Positions 5,773 through 50,776 of a stretch of 64,000 bases of DNA are shown here, piece after piece. The stretch spans positions 81,994 to 145,993 of the forward strand of contig JBFXKG010000005.1 in assembly GCA_050174015.1 (NCBI GenBank). The letters run 5' to 3'. Each line of letters opens with the position of its first letter. The stretch's first letter is position 1. Made by a program: the position numbers and the translations under genes. The notes beneath the pieces were generated by a model, which saw only the letters and a list, made by a program, of their open reading frames with translations, was not told the DNA's origin and ran no database searches. Source of the stretch: Candidatus Krumholzibacteriia bacterium. GTDB taxonomy: Bacteria > Krumholzibacteriota > Krumholzibacteriia > LZORAL124-64-63.

Positions 5773-6136
5773 CGACTCGGCCACGGTTCGGGCGGTCATC
5801 AGCAAGGCCCTGAAGCTCGCCGAGGTGCCCATCAACGAGCTCTACCAGGCCGGCAACGGCCGGGAAGCCCTGGACGCCCTTCAGAAGGGCTGGATCGACC
5901 TGGTGTTCTGCGACATCAGCATGCCCGTCATGGACGGGGAACAGCTTGTGGAGGCCATGAAGGCGAACGGGATGATCGAGACCATTCCGGTGGTGATCGT
6001 CTCTTCGGCCGGCAGCGAACCGCGGGTCGCCAGGCTCAGGGAAAACGGAGTGCGCGACTACATCCAGAAACCGTTCACTCCCGAACGGATCCGGGAAGTC
6101 GTGGACCAGGTCATGGGAGCGGTTGGACATGCATAG
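5747..6136 (+). CDS. cheY: CheY-like single-domain response regulator
   Basis: MAFNILIVDDSATVR...DLVFCDISMPVMDG...KPF; receiver-domain acid pocket and conserved Lys. Confidence 0.8.
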   Translation: MAFNILIVDDSATVRAVISKALKLAEVPINELYQAGNGREALDALQKGWIDLVFCDISMPVMDGEQLVEAMKANGMIETIPVVIVSSAGSEPRVARLRENGVRDYIQKPFTPERIREVVDQVMGAVGHA

Positions 6137-6591: not shown

Positions 6592-7644
6592 GTGAAACCC
6601 ATCCGGGTCCTCATCATCGACGATTCCCCCACAGTGAGGGCCCTCATCAGGCGGGGTCTGTCGGGCGCCGAGGGCATCGAGGTGGTCGGGGTCGCTCCCA
6701 ACCCCTACGTGGCGAGGGACATGATCGTCAAGGATCCCCCCGACGTGGTCACGCTCGACCTGGAGATGCCGCGCATGGACGGGCTGACGTTCCTGCGCAA
6801 GCTCATGAGCCATTACCCCCTGCCGGTGGTGGTCATCTCGACGCTGACCCGCGCGGGCAGCCTCAAGGTCCAGGAGGCCCTCGAGGCGGGCGCCGTCGAG
6901 GTGGTCGGCAAGAACCTCACGAGCGAGGGGACCCAGGCCCTCATGCTCGAGATCGTGCGCAAGGTCCGGGCCGCCGCCGGGGCCAGGGTCCAGAGCAGGC
7001 CGCTCGGCCACCGGAGTCCCGGCGCGGAGAGTTCCCCGCGGCCCCTGGCCAGGGTGGGATGCCCCGCCGACCGCCTGCTGGCCATCGGGGCCAGCACCGG
7101 CGGAACCCAGGCGCTCACGGCCATCCTGAGCCGGTTGCCGGAGGACATCCCCGGAACCCTCATCGTCCAGCACATGCCGCCCGGTTTCACCGCCCAGTTC
7201 GCGGCGAACCTCGACCGCATCTGCCCGATGGAGGTGCGCGAGGCCAGGACGGGCGACGTCCTGCAGCCCGGTCTGGCGCTGATCGCGCCGGGCGACCGCC
7301 ACCTGCTGCTGGCCAGAAAGGGCGGACGCCTGATGGTGGAGCTGCGCAACGGGCCGCGGGTGAGCGGTCACAAGCCTTCGGTGGACGTCCTGTTCCGCAC
7401 GGCGGCCGATCACGCGGGCGGCAAGGCCCTGGGGGTCATCCTGACCGGGATGGGCAAGGACGGGGCCGAGGGGCTGAAGCTGATGCACGACCGGGGCGCC
7501 CACACCATCGCCCAGGACGAATCCAGCTGCATCGTCTACGGGATGCCGCGGGAAGCCGTCGAACTGGGAGCCGCCACCGAGATCGTGAGGCTGGACCGGA
7601 TCCCGGAGGCCATCTGCCGGGCCCTGGCCGCGGTTCCCGTCTGA
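6592..7644 (+). CDS. cheB: Chemotaxis response regulator protein-glutamate methylesterase CheB
   Basis: 350 aa; N-terminal receiver (RVLIIDDSPTVR) plus CheB methylesterase domain (LLAIGASTGGTQAL, HMPPGFT, GMGKDGAEGL). Confidence 0.9.
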   Translation: MKPIRVLIIDDSPTVRALIRRGLSGAEGIEVVGVAPNPYVARDMIVKDPPDVVTLDLEMPRMDGLTFLRKLMSHYPLPVVVISTLTRAGSLKVQEALEAGAVEVVGKNLTSEGTQALMLEIVRKVRAAAGARVQSRPLGHRSPGAESSPRPLARVGCPADRLLAIGASTGGTQALTAILSRLPEDIPGTLIVQHMPPGFTAQFAANLDRICPMEVREARTGDVLQPGLALIAPGDRHLLLARKGGRLMVELRNGPRVSGHKPSVDVLFRTAADHAGGKALGVILTGMGKDGAEGLKLMHDRGAHTIAQDESSCIVYGMPREAVELGAATEIVRLDRIPEAICRALAAVPV

Positions 7645-11207: not shown

Positions 11208-12521
11208 ATGGCGATGATCGAGCACGAAGGAATCCGTCTGGACATCAGCGGCGCCGGTGAGTATCTGCCGGCCTCCGAACTGGAGGCCCTGGAGCCCCGG
11301 GCCCTGGCCGCCCTGGCCGAGTTGCATGACGGCACCGGCCCCGGCGCCGACTACCTGGGTTGGCTGGACTTGCCGTCGTCCATCACGGCCGACGACCTGG
11401 GCGAGATCCGGGCCGAGGCCGACCGGATCGCCGCCCAGGCCGAGGTCCTGGCGGTCGTCGGCATCGGGGGTTCCTACCTGGGCGCCCGGGCGGTCCTGGC
11501 GGCCCTGGGTCTCGACGGCCGCGCCGGTTCCGGCCGCCCCGAGGTCATCTTCGCGGGCACGGGGCTGTGCGGGGCGACCCTGCAGCAGACCCTCGACCGC
11601 CTGGGCGACCGGGACGTCCACGTCTGCGTCATCTCGAAATCGGGAACGACCCTGGAACCGGCCGTCGCCTTCCGCATCCTGCGGGCGAGACTGGCGGCCC
11701 GGTACGGAGCCGGAGCCCCAAGCCGCATCACAGCGGTCACCGACGCCCGCCGCGGGGCCTTGCGACGCCTTGCCGAAGCCGAGGGATACGCGACCTTCGT
11801 GATTCCCGACGACGTCGGCGGCCGCTTCTCCGTCCTGACCCCGGTGGGCCTGGTTCCCCTGGCCGCGGCGGGCGTGGACGTCGCCGCCCTGGTGGACGGC
11901 GCCCGCTCCATGGCCGAATTCTGCCGGTCCGGCGATCTCCGCGCCAACCCCGCCCTGCTGTACGCGACGGTCCGGTACGGCCTGTACGCCAAGGGGTTCA
12001 CCACGGAGATCCTCAGCAGTTTCCACGGCGGATTGCAGCTGATGCAGGAGTGGTGGAAGCAGCTCTTCGGCGAGAGCGAGGGCAAGCAGGGCCGCGGCAT
12101 CTTCCCGGCCTCGACGGTGTTCACCACCGATCTGCACAGCCTGGGCCAGTACATCCAGGACGGCCGCCGGGTCCTCCAGGAGACCTTCCTGGCGGTGCGG
12201 GAGACGGGGACCGGTCTCGCCGTTCCTTGCGGCGCGGGGGAGGGGTCCGATCCCGACGGTCTGGACTATCTCGCCGGCCGCTCCCTCGACGAGATCAACT
12301 GGAAGGCCTACGAAGGCACGCGGACGGCCCACCTGGCCGGCGGGGTGCCCTGTCTGGGCCTGGAACTGGATCGGGTGGACGCCCGCACCCTCGGGGCCCT
12401 GATCTACATGTTCGAGCTTGCGGTGGGAGTCGGCGGCAAGCTGCTGGGAGTGAATCCCTTCGACCAGCCCGGGGTGGAGACCTACAAGAAGGAAATGTTC
12501 CGCCTTCTAGGCAAACCCTAG
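11208..12521 (+). CDS. pgi: Glucose-6-phosphate isomerase (short bacterial/archaeal-type PGI)
   Basis: 437 aa; SIS motifs VGIGGSYLGARAV and GESEGKQGRGIFP. Confidence 0.8.
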   Translation: MAMIEHEGIRLDISGAGEYLPASELEALEPRALAALAELHDGTGPGADYLGWLDLPSSITADDLGEIRAEADRIAAQAEVLAVVGIGGSYLGARAVLAALGLDGRAGSGRPEVIFAGTGLCGATLQQTLDRLGDRDVHVCVISKSGTTLEPAVAFRILRARLAARYGAGAPSRITAVTDARRGALRRLAEAEGYATFVIPDDVGGRFSVLTPVGLVPLAAAGVDVAALVDGARSMAEFCRSGDLRANPALLYATVRYGLYAKGFTTEILSSFHGGLQLMQEWWKQLFGESEGKQGRGIFPASTVFTTDLHSLGQYIQDGRRVLQETFLAVRETGTGLAVPCGAGEGSDPDGLDYLAGRSLDEINWKAYEGTRTAHLAGGVPCLGLELDRVDARTLGALIYMFELAVGVGGKLLGVNPFDQPGVETYKKEMFRLLGKP

Positions 12522-12625
12522 GCCGCAGGATATATTGTACGCCGTAAGGCACTCCGGACGGGGGACGGCCCGGTCGCGCCCCGCCCGCATCACCCGACGA
12601 TCCGGGACAACCAAGGAGAATCGCC

Positions 12626-22832: not shown

Positions 22833-22956
22833 CCAGGGGCCGGACCGGGGCGCCAGGCGGGCCGTAGAGACAGGAACCCCCGGGGAACGTTCCGAAGGGC
22901 GTCAGCCCGAAGAGTTCCCCGGGGGTTCCTGTCTCTAGGACCGATCGTGGCCCCGG

Positions 22957-41386: not shown

Positions 41387-42787
41387 ATGCAACTGACCTT
41401 CCACGGCGCCGCCGGCACCGTCACCGGCTCGCGGCACCTGCTCGAGGCCGCCGGCCAGCGCGTCCTCATCGATTGCGGCCTGTTCCAGGGGCTCAAGCAG
41501 CTGCGGCGGATGAACTGGGATACCCCGGGTTTCGAACCCGGGTTCCTCGATCGCGTCGTCCTGACCCACGCCCACATCGACCACACGGGTTACACCCCCC
41601 GCTTGCTGCAGTACGGGTTCAAAGGGCCGGTCCACTGCACCGAGCCTACCGCCGAACTGCTGGAACTGATGCTCATGGATTCGGCGCACCTGCAGGAGGA
41701 GGACGCGGCCTGGGCGAACAAGAAGGGGTTCTCCAAGCACGATCCCGCCGAACCGCTCTACACGTCGGTGGACGCCCTCAGGACGCTCAAGCTGATCCGG
41801 CCCGAACCGTTCCAGCGCTGGATCGCGTGTTCGGAGGGGATGCGCATGCGCTACCACAATTCCGGACACATCCTCGGCGCGGGTTTCGTGGAGTTCCGCA
41901 TCAAGGCCGACCGGCCCGACACGGTGAATCCGGGCGAGCTGACGGTGATCTTCAGCGGGGACGTCGGCCGCTACGACGTGCCCCTCCACCTCGACCCCGA
42001 GCCCCTGCCCGCCTGCGACGTCCTGATCATCGAATCGACCTACGGCAACCGCACCCACGACCACGAGCCCGTGCTGGAGCAGATCGGCGAGGAGTTCAGG
42101 CGCACGGTGCACAAGCGGGGGGTCATCCTCATCCCGGCGTTCGCGGTCGGACGCACCCAACTGGTGGGCCTGATCCTCCGCGGCCTGATGACCCAGGGCG
42201 ACCTGGCCGAGGTCCCCATCCACATCGACAGTCCCATGGCCATCGACGCGACCCTGATCTACTCGCGCCACCTCTACGACGACAACCTGGACGAGGGCGT
42301 CACGGCCGACGACCGCAGCCGCCTGTTCCCCCGCAACGTGAAGCTGCATCGCACCGTCCACGAGTCCAAGCAGCTCAACACCCTGAAGGGGCCACGGGTG
42401 ATCATCGCGGCCAGCGGGATGATGACCGGGGGGCGCATCCTCCACCATCTCATCCGGCGCCTGCCCGACCATCACAACCTGATCCTGCTGTCGGGCTACC
42501 AGGCGCAGGGTACGCGGGGCCGGTCGCTGCAGGACGGCGCCGACCATCTGCGCATGCACGGCCAGAACGTGCCGGTCCACGCCAAGGTGGCGACCATCGA
42601 TGGACTCAGCAGCCACGCCGACATGAACGAGCTGATGCGCTGGGTCTCCACGGCTCCGCAGCCGCCGAAGCGGGTGTTCGTCGTCCATGGGGAAGAGGAG
42701 CAGTCGAGCCACCTGGCGGGGCTCATTCGTACGGCGACGGGGGCGGAGGTGACCGTTCCGGGTCTGAAGGATTCCTTCGCCTTGTGA
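41387..42787 (+). CDS. MBL-fold beta-CASP ribonuclease (RNase J/CPSF-like)
   Basis: LTHAHIDHTG motif II, beta-CASP region, C-terminal RNA-metabolising MBL motifs (HADMNELMRW, HGEEE). Confidence 0.7.
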   Translation: MQLTFHGAAGTVTGSRHLLEAAGQRVLIDCGLFQGLKQLRRMNWDTPGFEPGFLDRVVLTHAHIDHTGYTPRLLQYGFKGPVHCTEPTAELLELMLMDSAHLQEEDAAWANKKGFSKHDPAEPLYTSVDALRTLKLIRPEPFQRWIACSEGMRMRYHNSGHILGAGFVEFRIKADRPDTVNPGELTVIFSGDVGRYDVPLHLDPEPLPACDVLIIESTYGNRTHDHEPVLEQIGEEFRRTVHKRGVILIPAFAVGRTQLVGLILRGLMTQGDLAEVPIHIDSPMAIDATLIYSRHLYDDNLDEGVTADDRSRLFPRNVKLHRTVHESKQLNTLKGPRVIIAASGMMTGGRILHHLIRRLPDHHNLILLSGYQAQGTRGRSLQDGADHLRMHGQNVPVHAKVATIDGLSSHADMNELMRWVSTAPQPPKRVFVVHGEEEQSSHLAGLIRTATGAEVTVPGLKDSFAL

Positions 42788-42801
42788 CCGGATCCGGGAT
42801 A

Positions 42802-42865
42802 GGGGTCATACCTGATCCCGTCGCTCCGAAAGGCAGGTAGTCGCTCCGGAATCAGGTATGACCCC
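42802..42865. repeat. Palindromic element A: 15-bp perfect inverted repeat (ggggtcatacctgat / atcaggtatgacccc) around a 34-nt loop that carries the shared core in reverse orientation (cgctccgaaaggcaggtagtcgc)
   Basis: Read directly; 15 nt downstream of the RNase gene stop. Confidence 0.7.
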
Positions 42866-42990
42866 CATTCCCGCCGGCGCACATGGCGAAGGCCTTCCTG
42901 CCATTCCCGAAACAGCCGCCTCCGCTCGGATCGCCCCGACAGGGGGCCTACCTCAACGGCCTTGTACGGGGGATGTCCTGCTGGAGCATC

Positions 42991-43060
42991 GGAGATACAA
43001 ACGAAGGCCCCGACGCGACTATCTGCCTTTCGGAGCGTCGGGGCCTTCGTTTGTATCTCC
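42991..43060. repeat. Palindromic element B: 25-bp perfect inverted repeat (ggagatacaaacgaaggccccgacg / rc) with a 19-nt loop gactatctgcctttcggag
   Basis: Perfect complementarity over 25 bp. Confidence 0.75.
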
Positions 43061-43078
43061 AGGGATCCTGTCAGGCAT

Positions 43079-43116
43079 CCCCCGGCGCGACTGTTTGCCT
43101 TTCGGAGCGCCGGGGG
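43079..43116. repeat. Palindromic element C: 10-bp inverted repeat (cccccggcgc / gcgccggggg) with loop gactgtttgcctttcgga, near-identical to the loop of B
   Basis: Loop conserved while the stem sequence differs (compensatory). Confidence 0.7.
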
Positions 43117-43164
43117 CCCTGTCTGTTCATCTACTGCCGCCCAAGGTGAGAGCGACCCGCGGCC

Positions 43165-44631
43165 TCAATCCTGGTTCACGTCGGAGTAGGCGTTCTTCAG
43201 CTCATACCGCGAAACCCCGCGTTTCTTGTCCGGATCGCCCTCGTAGCCCAGGGCCTTCCAGTCGATGCGCCCCTGGCCTTCCTTGGGATGGCAGTCGACG
43301 CACTTCAGGGCGTACTGGGCGGGAGCGACCATGTGGTTGATCTTCCAGTAGGCCGAGGTCTCGGCGAAGCCGTACTCGCCGCCGTACTCCAGGCCCACCG
43401 CCTCCATGCCCTGCTTCATGGCGCTGTCCCAGTCCCACCCGTTCTTCCAGTAGCCGGTCTTGCCGAAGAGCTTGGGCACGGCCAGGATCCGGGCCTGCTT
43501 GTCGTAGGGCTGCTTGCCGCGCATGACCTTGAACGGGTAGATCTTGGCCTTGGGGTCGAGGCGGTTGCCCTGGAGCCAGTTCAGGTGGGTCACGCCGTCG
43601 GGGTTCATCGCATCGCCCAGGGTGTACTGGCCGCTGACCCCGTTGTACCACGCGTAGGTGGGGACGACGTTCTTCTCCCATTTGAAGGAGCCCTTCTTGA
43701 TGTCGTAGACGGGCATCCCGAATTCGTCCACGGTCGCTTCGATGTTCTGGCCGGCGGTGGACCAGTCCCACCAGGTCTTGGTGGGATTGGCGCGGGCGAA
43801 CTGGGGGATGTGGCAGGTCTGGCAGGCCACGGTCTTGTTGTGCCAGTTCAGGATCCGCTTGGCGTGCAGATCCTCGTCGTGGCAGCTGGTGCACTCGAGG
43901 TGGTTGGTGCCCCCGGGCGAATCGAACATGGCGTTGCCCGCGATGTCGTGGTCGGTGGTGGTGTGGCACTCCTGGCAGGTGAAGTCCTGGCCTTCGGGGC
44001 TCATGTGGACGTCGATGGCCAGCGGGGGTTCGGCCAGGGCCTTTTCCAGGTCGCCGTGCTTGACGTTGTTGCCGCCGCCGCCGTAGAAGTGGCAGGCGCC
44101 GCAGTTCTCGCGGCTGGGCATTCCGGCGCTGCGGGCGATGCTGGCCAGGTCCAGGGGCTCCCAGATCTTGCCCTCCCACTCGGTGGGCTCGTAGACGGGA
44201 TGGCCCGCCCCGGTGGGGAACTTCCGGTAGGAGCCGGTCTGGTCATGGCAGACCAGGCAGTCGATGTTCCCGGGGTTGTCGAAGTCGAAGGTTGCGTCCT
44301 TCCAGCCGTAGCCCGCATGGCAGCTGGTGCACCGCGGCCAGTTGGAATCCAGGGCGATGCAGAAATTGTTCAGGGCGTTCTTCTTGCCGAGGGGGACCTG
44401 GCCCTTGCCCACGACGTCCTGGAGGGGCATCCAGGTCCAGTGGGACGTCTTCATGAAGTCGTGGGCGGCGTCGTCATGGCATTCCAGGCAGACCGCGGTC
44501 ACGGCGGGGCCGTTTTCGAAGGGACCTTCGATGTCCTGGTGATCGGGGACCACGTTCAGGGCGAGGGCCTGACCGCAGGCGGCGGCCAGGACCAAGGCCA
44601 GGATGGTCTGGAATTGGGAAACTCGGCGCAT
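43165..44631 (-). CDS. Octaheme c-type cytochrome (octaheme tetrathionate-reductase-like family)
   Basis: Signal peptide MRRVSQFQTILALVLAAACGQALA; eight CxxCH motifs (CLECH, CTSCH, CLVCH, CGACH, CQECH, CTSCH, CQTCH, CVDCH); ggagg RBS; 488 aa. Confidence 0.8.
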   Translation of the reverse strand: MRRVSQFQTILALVLAAACGQALALNVVPDHQDIEGPFENGPAVTAVCLECHDDAAHDFMKTSHWTWMPLQDVVGKGQVPLGKKNALNNFCIALDSNWPRCTSCHAGYGWKDATFDFDNPGNIDCLVCHDQTGSYRKFPTGAGHPVYEPTEWEGKIWEPLDLASIARSAGMPSRENCGACHFYGGGGNNVKHGDLEKALAEPPLAIDVHMSPEGQDFTCQECHTTTDHDIAGNAMFDSPGGTNHLECTSCHDEDLHAKRILNWHNKTVACQTCHIPQFARANPTKTWWDWSTAGQNIEATVDEFGMPVYDIKKGSFKWEKNVVPTYAWYNGVSGQYTLGDAMNPDGVTHLNWLQGNRLDPKAKIYPFKVMRGKQPYDKQARILAVPKLFGKTGYWKNGWDWDSAMKQGMEAVGLEYGGEYGFAETSAYWKINHMVAPAQYALKCVDCHPKEGQGRIDWKALGYEGDPDKKRGVSRYELKNAYSDVNQD

Positions 44632-44860
44632 GGACGTTGCCTCCGTGTGGAGCCCCCGATCCGTCACGTTCCCCCTGTCAGGGACCGGGTCGGAGCGCTG
44701 TGAAATCATTAACCCTGCCTCAAAATTCACCCAGCCCGGGGGTATAATCAAGAAATTTCATGACAAATTGATGACATAAAGGAGATTGGAACCGTCCGAT
44801 ATTCGTTCTGGGAAGTAAATCAAGAGAGCATTCTGCCGACAAAGAGGGCAGGAGGTCGCC

Positions 44861-45265
44861 ATGATCCAGAGATTCTGCCCCCACCTCGAGGAATACGGGG
44901 TCCAGTTCACGAAGACAGCCGCGTCATACGAGGCGTTCAACGCCCACATGGACCGGTTCATCGAGGAAGGTCGCCCGCCGGAACTGGTCGAGGTCCTGAA
45001 TCAGACGCTCGAGGAGTGGCGCAAGGAGAACAGGACCCTGCGGGCCATGTTTCTGGAACTGTACGAAAACGGCAGGATCCTGCTGCCCAAGGGAGCTCTG
45101 CGGCAGGCGCGCCGACACGACCATCAGGTCCACGGGAAGGCCAAATGCAGCGATTGCTTCCGGGAGGTCCCGCGCCTGGTCTTCGGCGAATGGCAGCTGG
45201 CCCACAACGGGATGGTCAACTTCCGCGGCCGGGAACTTCCCCAGGGGACGGGAGCGGGAGTCTGA
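44861..45265 (+). CDS. Hypothetical protein
   Basis: 134 aa; strong RBS aggaggtcgcc before ATG; no recognised domain. Confidence 0.45.
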   Translation: MIQRFCPHLEEYGVQFTKTAASYEAFNAHMDRFIEEGRPPELVEVLNQTLEEWRKENRTLRAMFLELYENGRILLPKGALRQARRHDHQVHGKAKCSDCFREVPRLVFGEWQLAHNGMVNFRGRELPQGTGAGV

Positions 45266-46313: not shown

Positions 46314-46976
46314 ATGATCAGTTTGGTCAAGAAAATGTCCCTGGCGTTGGTCCTGGCAGCGGTGCTGTCCGTGCCGGCCTTCGCCCAGGTCGCTTCCATC
46401 GATTATATCGGATTCGGGTACGAGACCGGAGGCATCTTCCCCAGCGATCCGGGGGATGAACTGGTGGTCGCCGCCATCGCCGACTGGGTCGACGCTGAGT
46501 TCGGCGTCGATCTCGGCGCGGATGAGCTGACCTTCCACGTCTACGGCCTGATCAGCACCGGCCAGTTCAGCTCCGGCGGCAACACCGTGGTCGGCTACAC
46601 GGGCGGCGTCCTGGAGATCTACCAGGATTCCGGCAAGAACGCCGACTGGGGCGTCAATCCCCCCAACGCCACCTCTCCCGGCACCTTCTCCGACGGAACC
46701 CTCTTCTTCCAGGGCTCGTTCAACGACTTCACGCTCTTCTTCACGCCCGACGGCAACGGGGCCTTCGAGGGCTCCCTCGACGCCCTGGGCGGAACGATGA
46801 TCGACGGCAGCTGCGCCGGGTGCGTGTACACCTGGGGCGGGGCGTTCACCCGTGATGCCGGGGCGCTGATTCCAGGGGGTTACGACCTCCAGATCGACGG
46901 CGTGTTCCAGATCGACGCCACCGTTTCCAGCGAGACCAGCAACTGGGGATCCGTCAAGGCCCTGTTCAACAACTAG
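46314..46976 (+). CDS. Secreted paralogue A1 (type-A, CxxC-containing; C-terminal SWGSVKALFNN)
   Basis: Signal peptide; conserved SIDYIGFGYETGG, ELTFHVYGLIS, LEIYQD, DGSCAGCVYTWGGAF; about 65% identity to A2 and A3. Confidence 0.75.
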   Translation: MISLVKKMSLALVLAAVLSVPAFAQVASIDYIGFGYETGGIFPSDPGDELVVAAIADWVDAEFGVDLGADELTFHVYGLISTGQFSSGGNTVVGYTGGVLEIYQDSGKNADWGVNPPNATSPGTFSDGTLFFQGSFNDFTLFFTPDGNGAFEGSLDALGGTMIDGSCAGCVYTWGGAFTRDAGALIPGGYDLQIDGVFQIDATVSSETSNWGSVKALFNN

Positions 46977-47026
46977 GAAGATCAGCCCGGGCCGTGACAG
47001 GCCTGGGATTCCGGGAGGAATACAGC

Positions 47027-47647
47027 ATGAAGAAGAGGATCATGGTTCTGCTGGTCGCCGCCGCCTCGGTCCTGGTTCCCATGACCGCCCAGGCCCAGCA
47101 GCTTTTCGATTTCAACGGCCAGACCGACCTGCCGGACATGGTGGGATCCGACCTGACGATGTACAGCCGGATGTTCGACGCCTCTCCGGCGGTTCCGCCC
47201 ATCCCCCTTGACTTCGCCAACTACGAGTTCACCCTGGTGGTGACCGGGCTCGAACTGGTGACCGACGGGAATCCCCAGGCTTACGCCGGGGGCACCGTGA
47301 TCATCTACCAGGATGACGCCACGCCGGCGGATTACGCCAACACCGGGACCTTCACCGACGGCACCGCCATCCTGGTGGGCAGCCTGGTCAGCCTGAACCG
47401 GACCATGTTCACCTCGTCCCTGGGCTCCGTCCTGGGCACCGTGGACTGGACCGGGGGGACCCGCCTGGACGACATCGCCCCCGAGGATCAGGACGGCTGG
47501 GCCTTCCTGTCGGGTACGATCAACCGGGCCGATTCCGTCGAACCCGGCTTCGATGAGGCCTGGGACGGGAAGGTCGAACCGCAGGAGCCCATCGTGGACG
47601 ATCAGAACAGCAGCTGGGGATCCGTGAAGGCTCTTTTCAGTCGCTAG
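47027..47647 (+). CDS. Secreted paralogue B1 (type-B, Cys-free; C-terminal SWGSVKALFSR)
   Basis: Signal peptide MKKRIMVLLVAAASVLVPMTAQA; conserved QQLFDFNGQ, PIPLDFANYEFTLVV, GGTVIIYQDD, VDWTGGTRLDDIAPEDQDGWAFLSG. Confidence 0.75.
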   Translation: MKKRIMVLLVAAASVLVPMTAQAQQLFDFNGQTDLPDMVGSDLTMYSRMFDASPAVPPIPLDFANYEFTLVVTGLELVTDGNPQAYAGGTVIIYQDDATPADYANTGTFTDGTAILVGSLVSLNRTMFTSSLGSVLGTVDWTGGTRLDDIAPEDQDGWAFLSGTINRADSVEPGFDEAWDGKVEPQEPIVDDQNSSWGSVKALFSR

Positions 47648-47671
47648 CCGCCATGCGAGGCTTGAGGCGCA

Positions 47672-47703
47672 GGGGCCCCGACCAGGTTCGGGGCCCTTTT
47701 TTG
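47672..47703 (+). terminator. Rho-independent terminator after B1 (ggggccccg-accaggtt-cggggccc + T7)
   Basis: GC stem followed by a T-run. Confidence 0.7.
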
Positions 47704-47737
47704 ATAGGTGGCGTCATTTTCCCGCCCTGGTCATTTA

Positions 47738-47752
47738 GGAAAAATTCCTAAT
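47738..47752 (+). promoter_or_regulatory. Conserved motif GGAAAAATTCCTAAT, copy 2; followed by candidate promoter TTGAAA-N17-TAGGAT (47753-47781)
   Basis: Read directly. Confidence 0.5.
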
Positions 47753-47889
47753 ATTGTTGAAATCGTTCGGGAAATGGCGTAGGATTTTTCACAGACGATT
47801 CAAAATTGATGACATAGGGTGCCGGAGATGATGGGAATCACAACGGACGATCCCGGCCGTGATGCGGCCCGGATCCTGGGGGTACGACG

Positions 47890-48558
47890 ATGAAGAGAAC
47901 CTATGTTCCGAAGGTGCTGGTGGGCGCCTTGCTTCCGGCCCTGTTCGCGGTCCCAGCCCTGGGACAGGTCTATTCGATCGATTACTTGGGCTATGCCTGG
48001 GAAACCGGCGGGATCCTGCCCAGCGATGCGGGCGACGAACTGGTCATCGTCAGCGTCGCGGACAACGTCGATCCCGCCTTCGGGGTCGATCTGGGCACCG
48101 ATGAGCTGACCTTCCACGTCTACGGCCTGATCAGCGGCGGCGAGACGGATTTCCTCGGCAACACCATGATCAACTATTCCGGCGGCTACCTGGAGATCTA
48201 CCAGGATCCTTCGCGGAACGCCGATTGGGGCGTCGATCCCCCCAATGCGACCGCGCCCGGCTCCTTCACCGAGGGCAGCCTGTTCTTCCGTGGCGCCTTC
48301 ACGGCGTTCACCCTGTTCTTCGATCCCAGCGGCAGTTACGGTTCCTTCGAGGGGACTCTCGACGGCCTCGCGGGATCGATCATCGACGATGTCTGCTCCG
48401 ACTGCGTGTACACGTGGGGCGGGGCGTTCACCCTGGATGCCGGCGCCCAGATTCCGCAGGGCTATGACCTCCAGATCGACGGCGTCTTCGAGATCGACGC
48501 GGCCGTGTCCTCGGAATCCGCGAGCTGGGGTTCGGTGAAGGCGCTCTTCAACAATTGA
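47890..48558 (+). CDS. Secreted paralogue A2 (C-terminal SWGSVKALFNN)
   Basis: Signal peptide; SIDYLGYAWETGG ... DDVCSDCVYTWGGAF. Confidence 0.75.
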   Translation: MKRTYVPKVLVGALLPALFAVPALGQVYSIDYLGYAWETGGILPSDAGDELVIVSVADNVDPAFGVDLGTDELTFHVYGLISGGETDFLGNTMINYSGGYLEIYQDPSRNADWGVDPPNATAPGSFTEGSLFFRGAFTAFTLFFDPSGSYGSFEGTLDGLAGSIIDDVCSDCVYTWGGAFTLDAGAQIPQGYDLQIDGVFEIDAAVSSESASWGSVKALFNN

Positions 48559-48605
48559 GGTTTGCATCGCTCCGCGGGGGGCTTGTGACATCTGGAGGTT
48601 GCAAC

Positions 48606-49226
48606 ATGAGATTCACGGTAAAGATCCTGCTGGCCGTCCTGGCGCTGGCTTCGCTTCCGGTGGCCGTGCAGGCCCAGCAGCTGTTCGACTTCAACGGTCA
48701 GGCGGTCCTGCCCGCCGGAACGGGCGGGACCCTGACCATGCACAGCATCGTTTACGACGCGGCTCCCGCCGTGACGCCGATTCCCCTGGATTTCGCGAAC
48801 TTCGAGTTCACGATCGTCGTGGAGAACCTGATCCTGGATGTGGACGGGAATCCGCAGACGTACTCCGGAGGCACGGTCACCCTGTACCAGGACGCTGCGA
48901 CGGCCGCGGACTTCGGGGACCTCTCGACCTTCACGGACGGGACGGCGATCCTGATCGGGACCATCACCACCCTGAACCGGACGCTGTTCACGGCGACCCT
49001 GGGGTCGGTGCTGGGTTCGGTGGACTGGACCGGCGGGACCCGCCTGGACGACATCGCACCCTGGGATCAGGGTGGCTGGGCGTTCCTGAGCGGCCTGACC
49101 AATCGGGTGGATTCGGTGGTGCCGGGATTCGACGAGGCCTGGGACGGGAAGATCGAACCGTCCGAGCCCATCGTCGCCGGCGAGGCGAGTTCCTGGGGTT
49201 CGGTCAAGGCCCTGTTCAATCGTTGA
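48606..49226 (+). CDS. Secreted paralogue B2 (C-terminal SWGSVKALFNR)
   Basis: Signal peptide MRFTVKILLAVLALASLPVAVQA; QQLFDFNGQ ... VDWTGGTRLDDIAPWDQGGWAFLSG. Confidence 0.75.
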   Translation: MRFTVKILLAVLALASLPVAVQAQQLFDFNGQAVLPAGTGGTLTMHSIVYDAAPAVTPIPLDFANFEFTIVVENLILDVDGNPQTYSGGTVTLYQDAATAADFGDLSTFTDGTAILIGTITTLNRTLFTATLGSVLGSVDWTGGTRLDDIAPWDQGGWAFLSGLTNRVDSVVPGFDEAWDGKIEPSEPIVAGEASSWGSVKALFNR

Positions 49227-49243
49227 CCGCCTCCCGTTCATCT

Positions 49244-49276
49244 GCGAGCCCCGGCCTGCGGGGCTCGCAGTTTTTT
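49244..49276 (+). terminator. Rho-independent terminator after B2 (gcgagccccg-gcct-gcggggctcgc + agtttttt)
   Basis: Perfect 10-bp GC stem plus T6. Confidence 0.75.
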
Positions 49277-49333
49277 GACCACATGTGCTCGAATTTGGTA
49301 TATCGTTGCCATCATTGAAGTTGGTGAAAGATA

Positions 49334-49348
49334 AGAAAAATTCCTAAT
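49334..49348 (+). promoter_or_regulatory. Conserved motif AGAAAAATTCCTAAT, copy 3; followed by candidate promoter TTGCAT-N17-TAGTCT (49351-49379)
   Basis: Read directly. Confidence 0.5.
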
Positions 49349-49459
49349 TCCATTGCATTTTCTGGCCGGCCGTGCTAGTCTCACCCTGAAATCGCCCACC
49401 AATTAAAACTCAATTCGATATATGCGACCCGCAACTCGAGTTCAGCTGGAGGGAAGATC

Positions 49460-50122
49460 ATGAAGAAAACCTTCACCCCTTGCGCCCTGGTGAGCCTGCT
49501 GCTCGCTTTCGTTCTGGCGGTGCCGGCGCTGGGGCAGGTGTATTCCGTCGATTATCTCGGTTATGGCTGGGAGCAGGGCGGCCCCCTGAAGGCCGCCGGT
49601 GATGAACTGATCATCACGGCCACGTCGACCTACGTGCATCCTGCCTTCGGCGTCGATCTCGGAACCGAGGAATTGACCTTCTACGTCTCGAGCTTGATCA
49701 GCAACGGCCCGACGGACTACTTCGGCAACACCCAGATCAACTACACCGGCGGCATTCTCGAGATCTATCAGGATCCCCTGATGAACGCGGACTGGGGAGT
49801 CAATCCTCCCAACGCCACCTCACCGGGCAGCTTCCAGGAAGGCAGCCTGTTCTTCGCGGGGGCGTTCACCGCCTTCACCATGTTCTTCGATCCTTCCGGG
49901 TCCTACGGTTCGTTCGAGGGGACCCTCGACGGGGTGGCCGGCTCCATCATCGACGGGGTCTGCTCCGATTGCGTCTACACCTGGGGTGGCGCCTTCCAGA
50001 CCGGTTCCGGGGCCCAGATTCCCGAGGGGTACTGGATCCAGGTCGATGGCGTGTTCGAGATCGATGCCGCCGTATCTTCGGAGGCCGCCAGCTGGGGCTC
50101 CGTCAAAGCACTTTTCAACTAG
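49460..50122 (+). CDS. Secreted paralogue A3 (C-terminal SWGSVKALFN)
   Basis: Signal peptide; SVDYLGYGWEQGG ... DGVCSDCVYTWGGAF. Confidence 0.75.
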   Translation: MKKTFTPCALVSLLLAFVLAVPALGQVYSVDYLGYGWEQGGPLKAAGDELIITATSTYVHPAFGVDLGTEELTFYVSSLISNGPTDYFGNTQINYTGGILEIYQDPLMNADWGVNPPNATSPGSFQEGSLFFAGAFTAFTMFFDPSGSYGSFEGTLDGVAGSIIDGVCSDCVYTWGGAFQTGSGAQIPEGYWIQVDGVFEIDAAVSSEAASWGSVKALFN

Positions 50123-50167
50123 TCCGGTAGGATTCGCCGCGACGCCCTGCGGCATGGGAGGACGGAA

Positions 50168-50776
50168 ATGAAGAACGCAATCAAGGGAATGCTGATCGTC
50201 CTGGCGGTGGTTGCCTTGCCCCTGTCCGCCTCGGCGCAACAGTTGTTCGACTTCAACGGCCAGGCCATGGTGCCTGCGGTGGTCGGCGGCACGCTGAGCA
50301 TGTACAGCGTGATGTACGATCCCGCCCCGCAGACCACGCCCCTCCCGCTGGACTTCGACAACTTCGAATACACGCTGGTGGTTTCGGGAGCGACCCTCGA
50401 CGTCAACGGCAATCCCCAGTCCTACGTCGGCGGCGTGCTGACGATCTACGAGGACGCGGGTACGGCGGCCGACTTCGCCAACACCGCGACGTTCACCGAC
50501 GGCACGGCCATCCTGGTGGGGAGCTTCACCTCCCTCAACCGGATCGTCTTCCTGAGCACGGGTTCGGTCCAGGGCTACCTGGACTGGAACGGAGGCGCCT
50601 GGCTGAACGACATCGCGCCCGAGGATCAGACCGGCTGGGCCTTCCTTGCCGGCACCAACAGCCGCAGCCCCGAACCCGGATATTCGGAGACCTGGGACGG
50701 CAAGGTGGAGCCGCCGACGGTCATCGTCGACGACCACGTCTCCTCCTTCGGCTCGGTCAAGGCGCTGTTCAAGTAG
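50168..50776 (+). CDS. Secreted paralogue B3 (C-terminal SFGSVKALFK)
   Basis: Signal peptide; QQLFDFNGQ ... LDWNGGAWLNDIAPEDQTGWAFLAG. Confidence 0.75.
   Translation: MKNAIKGMLIVLAVVALPLSASAQQLFDFNGQAMVPAVVGGTLSMYSVMYDPAPQTTPLPLDFDNFEYTLVVSGATLDVNGNPQSYVGGVLTIYEDAGTAADFANTATFTDGTAILVGSFTSLNRIVFLSTGSVQGYLDWNGGAWLNDIAPEDQTGWAFLAGTNSRSPEPGYSETWDGKVEPPTVIVDDHVSSFGSVKALFK

Follow-up and report, generated by a model that had tools for sequence, protein, structure and literature searches.

A conserved hairpin apex on stems that resemble inverted copies of neighbouring DNA: a candidate REP/BIME-like family at a Krumholzibacteriia gene junction

What makes, and what keeps, a set of hairpins that are alike at their tips and unrelated in their stems? 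The question is raised by an intergenic cluster in the window, a 64,000-nucleotide stretch of a Candidatus Krumholzibacteriia contig (JBFXKG010000005.1), where three palindromic elements (A, B and C) occupy the gap between the stop codons of two convergent genes. These neighbours are as the initial annotation described them: a beta-CASP RNase gene on the + strand, ending at 42787, whose product is 100% identical to P0001 (Pfam domains PF00753/PF10996/PF07521), and a PF11783 cytochrome gene on the - strand, ending at 43165, which also has cytochrome c7/c3/c554 matches. Together, the cluster and the cytochrome gene form a ~2.07-kb segment (42788-44860) that is missing from some relatives, in which the RNase gene is directly followed by a 136-aa ORF. 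The ORFs predicted across the elements fail the GC3 test and are non-coding, in line with the earlier view of them as spurious. The features are as follows, with a strand where one applies.

41387-42787, + strand: beta-CASP/RMMBL metallo-hydrolase gene (RNase J/CPSF-like), from its ORF and translation
42743-42925: extended palindrome A, ~80-nt arms (left 42743-42821, right 42846-42925)
42796-42871: inner hairpin A, 25-nt arms at 88% complementarity, 15 bp perfect
42822-42844, - strand: core copy A (GCGACTACCTGCCTTTCGGAGCG), inside the 40-nt centre 42815-42854
42949-43045: 97-nt segment (B left arm and core), missing at the orthologous L018, flanked by the direct repeat GGGGCC
42967-43084: hairpin B, 50-nt arms at 82%, inner 26 bp perfect Watson-Crick, z -10.3
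43015-43037, + strand: core copy B (GCGACTATCTGCCTTTCGGAGCG), from the core search
43079-43116: hairpin C, 10-bp stem, 18-nt loop, z -2.7
43085-43159: 75-nt indel that takes in core C, the 3' arm of C and a 39-nt tail; lacking in L018 and L039, with the direct repeat CCCG at its borders
43087-43109, + strand: core copy C (GCGACTGTTTGCCTTTCGGAGCG), from the core search
43165-44751, - strand: multihaem (octahaem-type) cytochrome c gene, Pfam PF11783, 8.8e-63

The shared part of the elements is the 23-nt core GCGACTNNYTGCCTTTCGGAGCG, which was matched in the 64 kb only at the three listed sites, compared to 0.00 matches expected (up to 3 mismatches; 100 dinucleotide shuffles). Searching with a 13-nt sub-core returned the same three sites, and a covariance model run over the window found no further copy beyond the cluster. 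At their cores, A and B match each other as inverted repeats of 33 nt (88%). Each core copy tips a strong hairpin, confirming that these are three related palindromes with a conserved apex, and the 23-mer itself is real, but the symmetry axis lies one base off from it. Hairpins A (15-bp perfect stem, 42802-42816 paired with 42851-42865, around a 34-nt loop) and C were measured correctly in the initial annotation; the long perfect stem of B is 26 bp with an 18-nt loop, rather than 25 bp with 19 nt. For A, the inner stem was right but the size of the palindrome was underreported, as its arms run to ~80 nt and reach into coding sequence, with a generic long-hairpin model aligning across 42741-42927. 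Inner hairpin A folds at -55.4 kcal/mol on the - strand (z -6.5) versus -47.4 on the + strand, and folding z-scores for A and B range from -4.9 to -10.3. The stems are indeed unrelated in sequence, and they remain paired. As a separate observation, a comparison of C with a long hairpin at 22860-22942 gave p~0.008 before correction for six tests, and a tolerant motif search stayed at chance level.

On the strand reading GCGACT, the conserved unit is 5'-GAGCGAC-URYY-(12-nt loop or variable mini-hairpin)-GGAGCGA-3', and it is this apical module, not the stems, that defines the family. The two halves can pair by way of two tandem G·A mismatches (G·A, A·G, G-C, C-G, G·A, A·G, C-G), and as they are able to zip together, the element has a preferred folding strand when single-stranded, be it RNA or DNA. 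Of 18 distinct elements, 17 are more stable when folded on the GCGACT strand (by a mean of 9.2 kcal/mol), and with the apex clamped this strand is also lower with RNA parameters (-11.6 vs -7.5 kcal/mol). It carries 14 G·U cells versus 3 on the other strand, an asymmetry resting on roughly 7 independent events versus 3, and its tandem G·A pairs turn into U·C/C·U on the GAAA strand. The initial annotation had instead placed a GNRA-type (GAAA) mini-hairpin on the minus strand, nested inside the larger hairpins; this is not supported, as the GAAA strand is the disfavoured one in those 17 of 18 elements and the strand best for pairing is the GCGACT strand. Nor is the GAAA "tetraloop" conserved. At L043, two elements at the homologous position (covariance-model matches, E 4.5e-4 and 3e-3) keep the frame GAGCGACU...GGAGCGA around apical mini-hairpins that differ, with unrelated mini-hairpins bearing GCA triloops where the tetraloop would be. 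In B and C, Watson-Crick pairs take the place of the outer G·A pairs (G·A to A-T/G-C). The apex alone has no unusual predicted stability with RNA parameters (z ~0), and folding it with DNA parameters gave no stable fold and nothing special. A kink-turn was considered and rejected on sequence grounds, as bulge and G·A pairs follow each other in the opposite order in a K-turn.

The origin of the stems is most readily seen in A, where the left arm (42743-42821) has been copied, inverted and since diverged, into the right arm (42846-42925). The ~80 nt mirrored in this way take in the RNase stop codon and the final ~45 nt of the gene. Local alignment of the reverse-complemented left arm to the right arm scored 56, a value reached in 0 of 2000 shuffles, and the outer part of the arms alone was equalled in 5 of 2000; identity is 86% over the first 20 nt and about 70% out to 80 nt. 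As the RNase C-terminus (...VTVPxLKDSFxL) is kept across almost all of the 120 homologues listed, the coding sequence is the original and the right arm the copy. An arm that is an inverted copy of the coding 3' end is also present in L039 and L043, and while the window arm mirrors a TGA stop codon, the right arm of L043 mirrors its own TAG. The long stems are inverted copies of the DNA beside the module and not inherited parts of a mobile unit. At only ~70% complementarity of the outer arms, the large duplication must be old; signs of recent copying are confined to the inner 20-30 bp.

Comparison between related Krumholzibacteriota MAGs shows arms that differ yet co-vary, so that both sides of a palindrome evolve in concert. 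Inner stems are purely Watson-Crick over 26, 27 and 32 bp, 14 of 17 pairs change on both sides, and 96.3% of cells in the stems are paired, compared to 65% in shuffled and 35-47% in slid controls; the covariation score of 0.85 (0.26 shuffled) was matched in 0 of 500 shuffles. Between the arms of the window ("W") and of L039/L040 ("K") there are 22 differing aligned columns, 12 of them mirrored in both right arms and 6 in one, and identity to the own arm is 0.66-0.68 versus 0.48 between the W and K right arms. The genes of the compared lineages are 91-93% identical, and the arms mirror lineage-specific synonymous changes, with mirrored synonymous and stop-codon states reaching 45-50 nt from the tip. 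The 40-nt centre, 42815-42854, differs between related lineages by 1-2 substitutions, which fall only at a variable NNN triplet. Compensatory stems had been taken to suggest selection on structure; this reading is not supported, as the arms repeat adjacent DNA, even coding sequence, in inverted form and with perfect Watson-Crick pairing, which points to copying at the DNA level at least as much as to selection.

The same relatives reveal how unstable the locus is. The 97-nt segment that carries the left arm and core of B was lost by deletion in L018, as B is present in L039, L042 and the window. The 75-nt indel at C ends 5 nt from the cytochrome stop codon, and its absence from L018 and L039, which are sisters on the C side (98.7%), fits gain or loss; the junction repeats GGGGCC and CCCG fit deletion as well as insertion. 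L018 also contains a 44-nt tandem duplication, L018 and L042 are hybrids joined at the apex, with the lineages forming mosaics, and three independent assemblies break inside the palindromes.

In order to place the elements more widely, the core was sought beyond the window. In a gammaproteobacterial MAG (OY970244.1), 6 exact cores plus variants were detected at 5 loci, as near-identical ~90-nt copies downstream of unrelated genes, clustered in alternating orientation. Copies of the gammaproteobacterial type lie behind housekeeping genes, FHA, DUF885 and nadC among them, and in two cases between convergent genes. The 26-nt apex is identical in two phyla. The core forms a dispersed family in that gammaproteobacterial MAG; none is apparent in the lineage of the window, whose species-representative MAG has one core match at a single locus. 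Adjacent element pairs are divergent (-,+) in all 8 cases: the window, L039, L043, L004, L019, L022, L034 and L036. A scan of a genome collection returned 33 loci, with ~69 chance matches expected (17 specified bases, 2 x 596 Gb), and as inspection of the singleton loci showed no hairpin and chance alone could account for them, these were discarded. Two core matches in viral contigs, neither in a hairpin, were judged to be chance. The plasmid database gave no match to a gammaproteobacterial-type element, and a literature search for the core as a string returned only unrelated primer sequences.

We consider it probable, if by no great measure, that the cluster represents a previously undescribed REP/BIME-like family in which the apex is conserved while template switching at replication creates and refreshes the stems. 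Such switching, taking place within one strand and nucleated by the apex, would build the stems, lengthen them and restore their perfect pairing time and again, which would leave them unrelated between copies, Watson-Crick perfect near the tip and decaying outward, and would produce a right arm of A that mirrors the RNase 3' end and stop codon. The palindromes would in turn favour both the loss of DNA between short direct repeats and illegitimate joining at the apex, rendering the locus hypervariable between strains. Template switching is the copying mechanism that we infer; as the apex alone lacks unusual predicted stability, we do no more than suggest that it may nucleate the process. By analogy with REP hairpins, which serve as 3'UTR terminators or stabilisers, convergent gene pairs included (bioRxiv 10.64898/2026.03.23.713779), the elements may act as 3'-end barrier or stabiliser structures for both convergent transcripts. 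Several observations weigh against the template-switching reading, among them the ~70% complementarity of the outer arms and the few independent events behind the G·U asymmetry. Covariation of the arms could also reflect selection for pairing or recombination between strain alleles, and L018/L042 are clearly recombinant. Template switching leaves the identical 26-nt apex in two phyla unexplained, and the single locus seen in the Krumholzibacteriota lineage is unlike a REP family.

Much of the same evidence can be read differently. The elements could be functional RNA structures of 3'-UTRs (factor-dependent or bidirectional terminators, barriers to exonucleases, sites for RNase III or an apex that binds protein), in which selection keeps the pairing and no special DNA copying is involved. 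Their position directly after both stop codons of the convergent pair, their presence in 2 of 2 lineages with a convergent neighbour of the RNase gene and 0 of 5 with a tandem neighbour, the strong stem covariation, a strand bias in G·U and tandem G·A pairs of the kind usual in RNA, and the REP precedent all speak for such a role. We nevertheless hold it to be possible but rather doubtful, as the pairs are always divergent and the favoured strand is therefore antisense to the adjacent gene for every gene-proximal element, as there are no U-tracts and no Rfam family, and as the inner stems, perfect over 26-32 bp and nearly free of G·U, together with the mirrored synonymous and stop-codon states, go far beyond the needs of RNA selection; between genes that are 91-93% identical, point mutation would hardly produce them. 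Hairpins that are incidental to a double-stranded DNA site, with the conserved GGAGCGA direct repeat bound by a dimeric or tandem-binding regulator, would account for the GAGCGA half-sites that stand as direct repeats 20 bp apart in the standard core. At L043, however, the spacings are 21 and 30 nt, and the inserted mini-hairpin juxtaposes the halves only when folded; the Watson-Crick replacements in B and C alter one "half-site", and the elements lie at 3' ends and not at promoters, making this explanation very improbable. That the palindromes are fold-back chimeras of assembly or amplification is scarcely credible. Such palindromes are classic artefacts in MDA and some long-read libraries, and several contigs do end inside them, but A and B recur with lineage-specific differences in independent NCBI, ENA, JGI and Logan assemblies, and the arms are diverged and not perfect over their full length.

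Mobility is the other line of explanation. In a REPIN/MITE-type miniature element, the divergent cores would serve as terminal inverted repeats delimiting a unit of ~230 bp, mobilised in trans by an enzyme such as a RAYT or another HUH or structure-specific nuclease, and the arms would belong to subfamilies of the element. The near-identical gammaproteobacterial copies behind unrelated genes fit this account, as do the inverted-repeat cores of A and B, the uniformly divergent pairs, the 4-bp direct repeat at the C indel junctions, an apex shared by two phyla, which suggests horizontal spread, the GTAG adjoining the inner stem in gammaproteobacterial-type copies, and a conserved loop on a variable stem, which is the logic of HUH nick sites. 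Against it, the outer arms in the window lineage are host DNA, namely a conserved coding 3' end; the species-representative MAG has its one core locus and the window no further copy; no transposase, RAYT or integrase gene is present in the window or L039; the Krumholzibacteriota copies have no GTAG, which is placed 3' rather than 5' of the hairpin where it does occur; and there is no plasmid match, with viral-contig matches only at chance. On balance such an element appears unlikely. A further proposal, which we think quite unlikely, is that a structure-specific process would recognise the G·A-zippered apex or nucleate there, growing palindromes from adjacent DNA and marking gene-insertion junctions, as an attC-like or hairpin-end-like recombination module acting on folded single strands and spread horizontally between phyla. 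It fits a cluster that lies exactly at the junction of the 2.07-kb cytochrome insertion, with L043 at the junction of a different gene set, and it fits the inner arm of each divergent-pair element mirroring host DNA outside the pair and the hybrid alleles joining precisely at the apex.

If the template-switching reading is true, the locus documents with unusual clarity how long perfect hairpins come about in nature and are kept, in that a small apex stays fixed while neighbouring DNA rewrites the stems, even to the point of mirroring a stop codon. It would bear on how much "compensatory" covariation can say about functional RNA structure, on where REP-like elements come from, and on the reasons for which such loci are hotspots of recombination and assembly. 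The motif common to the two phyla, GAGCGAC...GGAGCGA at hairpin tips, is defined well enough to be searched for.

Comparison with known systems sets several classes aside. An intrinsic terminator combines a GC-rich hairpin, its loop 3-8 nt long, with a U-tract behind it; in 42000-44000 there are 0 terminator-like sites and no U-tracts or T runs, and the loops here are 18-34 nt, so that canonical bidirectional terminators, one of the functions first proposed, do not describe the elements. A promoter scan found none, scans for tRNA/tmRNA and tandem repeats were likewise empty, and Rfam gave 0 matches in the window at gathering thresholds and, at E<=10, only generic long-hairpin (miRNA precursor) models far below those thresholds. 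CRISPR repeats, retrons, DGR hairpins, dif/Xer sites and hammerheads were each considered and rejected, as no matching motifs or associated genes were present. MITE copies share terminal inverted repeats and their full-length sequence and carry target-site duplications; the elements do not match this description, with outer arms in the window lineage that are host DNA and junction repeats that are ambiguous. Integron attC sites resemble the elements in being strand-preferring folded single strands with structure kept and sequence largely free, and in sitting at junctions of inserted genes, here the lineage-specific cytochrome insertion and, at L043, a different gene set. Yet attC conserves the hairpin base (R/L boxes, GTTRRRY) and varies the apex, the opposite of the cluster, and there is no attI nearby, no same-orientation cassette array, and no integrase or recombinase Pfam match among the genes of the window or L039. 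HUH endonuclease substrates include the origins of CRESS-DNA viruses and rolling-circle plasmids as well as the substrates of IS200/IS605 and RAYT enzymes. HUH nick sites likewise set a conserved loop or apex on sequence-variable stems and are acted on in one ssDNA strand; unlike such sites, the cluster has no Rep or RAYT gene found with it and its 12-nt loop is replaceable, as in L043, so that the conserved part is the G·A-paired neck rather than a loop nick motif.

The closest known kind is that of the REP/BIME-like extragenic palindromes, a possibility named in the initial annotation and supported by the dispersed, alternating-orientation family of the gammaproteobacterial MAG. REPs, BIMEs and REPINs are described from Enterobacteria and Pseudomonas (PMC3116915). 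Like them, the elements are extragenic just past gene 3' ends, often between convergent genes, form imperfect stem-loop palindromes that fold in ssDNA or mRNA, stand in alternating clusters and vary between strains in the presence of copies. The conserved stem with a 5' GTAG head and variable spacer of REP/REPIN is reversed here, with a conserved apex and free stems; GTAG occurs only in gammaproteobacterial-type copies, 3' of the inner stem. The element of the window lineage also differs in the single locus seen, in arms copied from host flanks, coding sequence included, in the lack of a RAYT gene in the window or L039 (the compared loci being 8-21 kb long), and in stems that are much longer, with 26-32 bp perfect and arms up to 80 nt. 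For the making of such stems, quasi-palindrome mutations in E. coli are a known case of hairpin creation and repair by template switching. Template switching makes reverse-complement repeats and repairs stems in one event (PMC8794818), and such mutations are described as a generic process at arbitrary inverted repeats (PMC8794818, PMC5453318). Here, too, one arm is the reverse complement of adjacent pre-existing sequence, clustered multi-base "compensatory" changes appear together and are mirrored in both arms between close relatives, stems are perfectly Watson-Crick, and loop-adjacent mismatches are converted to pairs, as in B and C. Unlike the generic process, it would recur around one conserved apex, in several lineages, with arms of up to 80 nt.

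The three palindromic elements A, B and C fill the space between the stop codons of two convergent genes, and each is an inverted repeat that carries a copy of the 23-nt core GCGACTNNYTGCCTTTCGGAGCG at its tip.

Features of the palindrome locus (window positions)
41387-42787, + strand: beta-CASP/RMMBL metallo-hydrolase (RNase) gene
42822-42844, - strand: core of hairpin A (arms of 25 nt, 88% complementarity; 15 bp perfect; 34-nt loop)
43015-43037, + strand: core of hairpin B (arms of 50 nt, 82% complementarity; inner 26 bp perfect; 18-nt loop)
43087-43109, + strand: core of hairpin C (10-bp stem; 18-nt loop)
43165-44751, - strand: multihaem cytochrome gene

Searching the 64-kb window with up to three mismatches yielded no fourth core site (shuffle expectation 0.00), and a sub-core search returned the same three. 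Compared with shuffled sequences, A and B folded with z-scores of -4.9 to -10.3, and C with a modest -2.7. The palindrome cluster is a real, statistically solid feature, and the three hairpins with a conserved core described in the initial annotation were recovered, small details aside, by core search, inverted-repeat analysis and folding. Rfam gave no match at gathering thresholds and only generic long-hairpin (miRNA precursor) models at permissive ones, and scans for sigma-70-like promoters, U-tract terminators, tRNAs and tandem repeats returned none. The RNase protein is 100% identical to an NCBI protein labelled as from a Candidatus Krumholzibacteriota MAG.

The window was compared with the orthologous loci L039, L040/L041, L042 and L018, whose RNase genes and that of the window are 91-97% identical pairwise. 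The 40-nt centre of A (GATCCCGTCGCTCCGAAAGGCAGGTAGTCGCTCCGGAATC) is the same in all of them save one or two substitutions at a variable NNN triplet, and the arms beside it are of two very different types, W (GGGGTCATACCTGAT, in the window) and K (GGGGGCCTGGTGCATGCGTGAT, in L039/L040), and both types pair perfectly with their respective partner arms. About 80 nt on the left of A, which include the last ~45 nt and the stop codon of the RNase gene, recur on its right side, in every lineage, as an inverted copy that has since diverged. None of 2000 shuffles reached the right/left similarity seen in the window, and only 5 of 2000 did so for the part beyond the obvious stem; arm identity starts at 86-95% (first 20 nt) and is about 70% as far out as 80 nt. 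As the RNase C-terminus (...VTVPxLKDSFxL) is retained in almost all of the 120 homologues listed, down to 62% identity, the coding arm must be the original and the non-coding arm its copy. Of the 22 aligned columns at which the W and K left arms differ, 12 have their mirror state in both right arms and another 6 in a single one. A right arm resembles its own left arm (0.66-0.68) more than the right arm of the other lineage (0.48). Five shared derived states nevertheless establish a common origin of the two right arms. These sequence comparisons show that the arms of A evolve in concert.

The locus has also been rearranged repeatedly. L018 and L042 are hybrids, with a W left arm that runs into a complete K element at the apex (after …GATCCCGTCG), and L018 carries a 44-nt tandem duplication. 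The duplication is visible as a perfect 42-nt direct repeat (5853-5894 and 5897-5938, period ~44 nt) next to the apex of A. The repeat covers the left arm and the displaced gene end, both of K type, and has TGA microhomology at its junction, which adds to the evidence for slippage here. Element B is found in the window, L039 and L042, while in L018 a deletion of 97 nt between GGGGCC direct repeats has taken away the left arm and core of B. Element C and its tail form a 75-nt indel between CCCG repeats that is present, among the compared orthologues, in the window only; with L018 and L039 being sisters on this side of the locus, it may be a gain or a loss. Three independent assemblies end inside the palindromes: L040 at 11481 and L041 at 11326, within A and 80 nt past the RNase gene, and L042 at 4230, within the core of B. 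These breaks argue that the structures are real and troublesome rather than an artefact of one assembly, and MAGs probably under-report elements of this kind.

The initial annotation had placed the nested mini-hairpin on the strand that reads GAAA, an assignment that the folding reverses, with the GCGACT strand more stable in 17 of 18 distinct elements by a mean of 9.2 kcal/mol. When a common 17-pair structure was scored on an ungapped alignment of 16 sequences, 96.3% of cells were paired on the GCGACT strand (14 G·U cells, from roughly seven independent events) versus 92.3% on the GAAA strand (3 G·U cells, three events). With the apex clamped, the GCGACT strand adopts the proposed fold at -11.6 kcal/mol, whereas the GAAA strand reaches -7.5 kcal/mol in a different structure. 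The apex alone was not more stable than shuffles, and DNA parameters predicted no stable apex on either strand. Stem covariation is very strong, with both sides changed in 14 of the 17 pairs and a score of 0.85 versus 0.26 that none of 500 shuffles reached; slid controls were 35-47% paired. Since one arm is demonstrably a copy of the other, such covariation does not on its own argue for selection on RNA, and the earlier reading of the compensatory stems as selection on structure does not follow from them.

A distant relative, L043, narrows down what is conserved. Its RNase gene has 81% nucleotide identity to that of the window, its convergent neighbour is instead a CHASE8 hybrid histidine kinase gene, and two divergent elements with perfect stems of 27 bp and 32 bp, unrelated in sequence, fill the intergenic space. 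The right arm of the first mirrors the coding 3' end of the L043 RNase gene itself, including the TAG stop codon. Both apices retain GAGCGACU(R)UU... and ...(C)GGAGCGA, with mini-hairpins closed by GCA triloops in place of the 12-nt loop, so the GAAA tetraloop is not conserved. These variants define a family frame, 5'-GAGCGAC-URYY-(loop or mini-hairpin)-GGAGCGA-3', in which antiparallel pairing of GAGCGAC with GGAGCGA gives G·A, A·G, G-C, C-G, G·A, A·G and C-G, that is, two tandem G·A motifs flanking a GC step. Self-pairing of d(…GAGCGA…) through tandem G·A mismatches was reportedly described as a stable DNA motif by Li, Zon and Wilson in 1991. A linear duplex binding site is disfavoured by the altered spacing of the half-sites in L043, which argues for a folded form.

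Scanning one genome per species for the 17 specified bases of the core returned 33 loci against ~69 chance matches expected by our own arithmetic; on inspection most were not within hairpins, and two sources are real. One is L018 (= L035), a syntenic orthologue whose identity to the window is 90-94%. The other, a gammaproteobacterial MAG (chromosome OY970244.1), holds six exact cores plus variants at five loci. The copies are hairpins of ~90 nt that form two or three subtypes at least and are near-identical within each. They are grouped in clusters of alternating orientation, 3' of unrelated housekeeping genes (FHA protein, DUF885, nadC, ferritin, COX3, trpD) and in two cases between convergent genes. 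Two metagenome contigs also carry elements of this type. A third, more degenerate subtype with apex GAGCGAGUCUGGCUUGCGGAGCGA was observed in clusters of the gammaproteobacterial type at L004 (~1950-2050), L032 (~7130-7230) and L019 (7661-7820), its loop different and the family frame retained. Viral contigs gave chance matches only, plasmids gave none, and a covariance model built from 16 elements found no additional copy in the window or related loci. The core thus forms a dispersed family in the gammaproteobacterial MAG; in the species-representative MAG of the window lineage, the core scan found it at this locus only. Across the two phyla, 26 nt of the apex are identical.

Elsewhere in the window, a long hairpin at 22860-22942, between a peptidase M14 gene and the next + strand gene, has 29-nt arms (93% complementarity), GTAG at the 5' end of its left arm and a 25-nt apex, GTTCCGAAGGGCGTCAGCCCGAAGA, containing its own mini-hairpin. 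Its apex half GCCCUUCGGAAC is similar to the core GCCUUUCGGAGC, as is the arm of this hairpin to the 3' tail of C (p~0.008, uncorrected for multiple tests), but the counts from a tolerant motif search were at chance level. The ~1.3 kb at 11336-12625 has no ORF past the GC3 filter, no Rfam match and no tRNA.

Adjacent elements are divergent by the GCGACT strand in 8 of 8 cases (window, L039, L043, L004, L019, L022, L034 and L036; about seven independent loci). Sense transcripts of the adjacent gene thus carry the weaker GAAA strand of each gene-proximal element, and the stronger strand falls to transcripts arriving from the opposite side, antisense or read-through. At homologous RNase loci, elements occur in 2 of 2 with a convergent neighbour and in 0 of 5 with a tandem one (Fisher p ~0.05), these five having a same-strand gene directly 3' of the RNase gene. 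In three of these relatives, L044, L048 and L051, the RNase gene is followed by a 136-137-aa ORF and an array of ~220-aa paralogues, whose window counterparts lie past the cytochrome gene at 54% (the ORF, 44861-45265) and 66% identity. Since the RNase gene abuts the ORF in relatives, 42788-44860 (~2.07 kb, palindromes plus cytochrome gene) is a lineage-specific insertion with the palindrome cluster at one junction. In L043, where a different convergent gene set comes after the RNase gene, the junction likewise has a pair of divergent elements. The window array (46314-50776) consists of six paralogous ORFs in tandem (~200-223 aa, none matching Pfam) and is conserved in relatives 3' of the RNase gene; the N-terminal stretch of the first ORF may be a signal peptide. 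The remaining genes of the window include those for chemotaxis, complex I and other housekeeping functions, and none is a mobile-element gene.

Template switching during replication is the best mechanistic account of the stems: it generates copies of neighbouring sequence in reverse complement and mends a stem by one event that changes several bases (PMC8794818). It would explain the perfect Watson-Crick inner stems of 26-32 bp and the outward decay of complementarity, as well as the mirrored synonymous and stop-codon states, the Watson-Crick pairs replacing outer G·A positions in B and C, and the accompanying deletions between short direct repeats. The apex is essentially invariant across strains, for which a protein or nuclease recognising the folded neck, a role in fold nucleation and recent horizontal transfer are candidate explanations. 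The locus offers a clear example in nature of the proposed hairpin growth by template switching, and it defines a motif, common to two phyla, whose partner and any mobilising activity are putative.

The closest known kind is the REP/BIME/REPIN class, which the elements resemble in extragenic 3'-end position, palindromic fold, clusters of alternating orientation and strain-variable presence (PMC3116915), and, in the gammaproteobacterial MAG, in dispersed near-identical copies. REPs act in 3'UTRs as terminators or stabilisers (bioRxiv 10.64898/2026.03.23.713779), and by analogy we infer a 3'-end hairpin function for the cluster. In contrast to the REP class, which conserves a stem with a GTAG head, the conserved part here is the apex, and in the window lineage the element is at a single locus with arms made of host DNA. 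What is new is the architecture, REP-like extragenic palindromes with a conserved apex and arms templated by the flanks.
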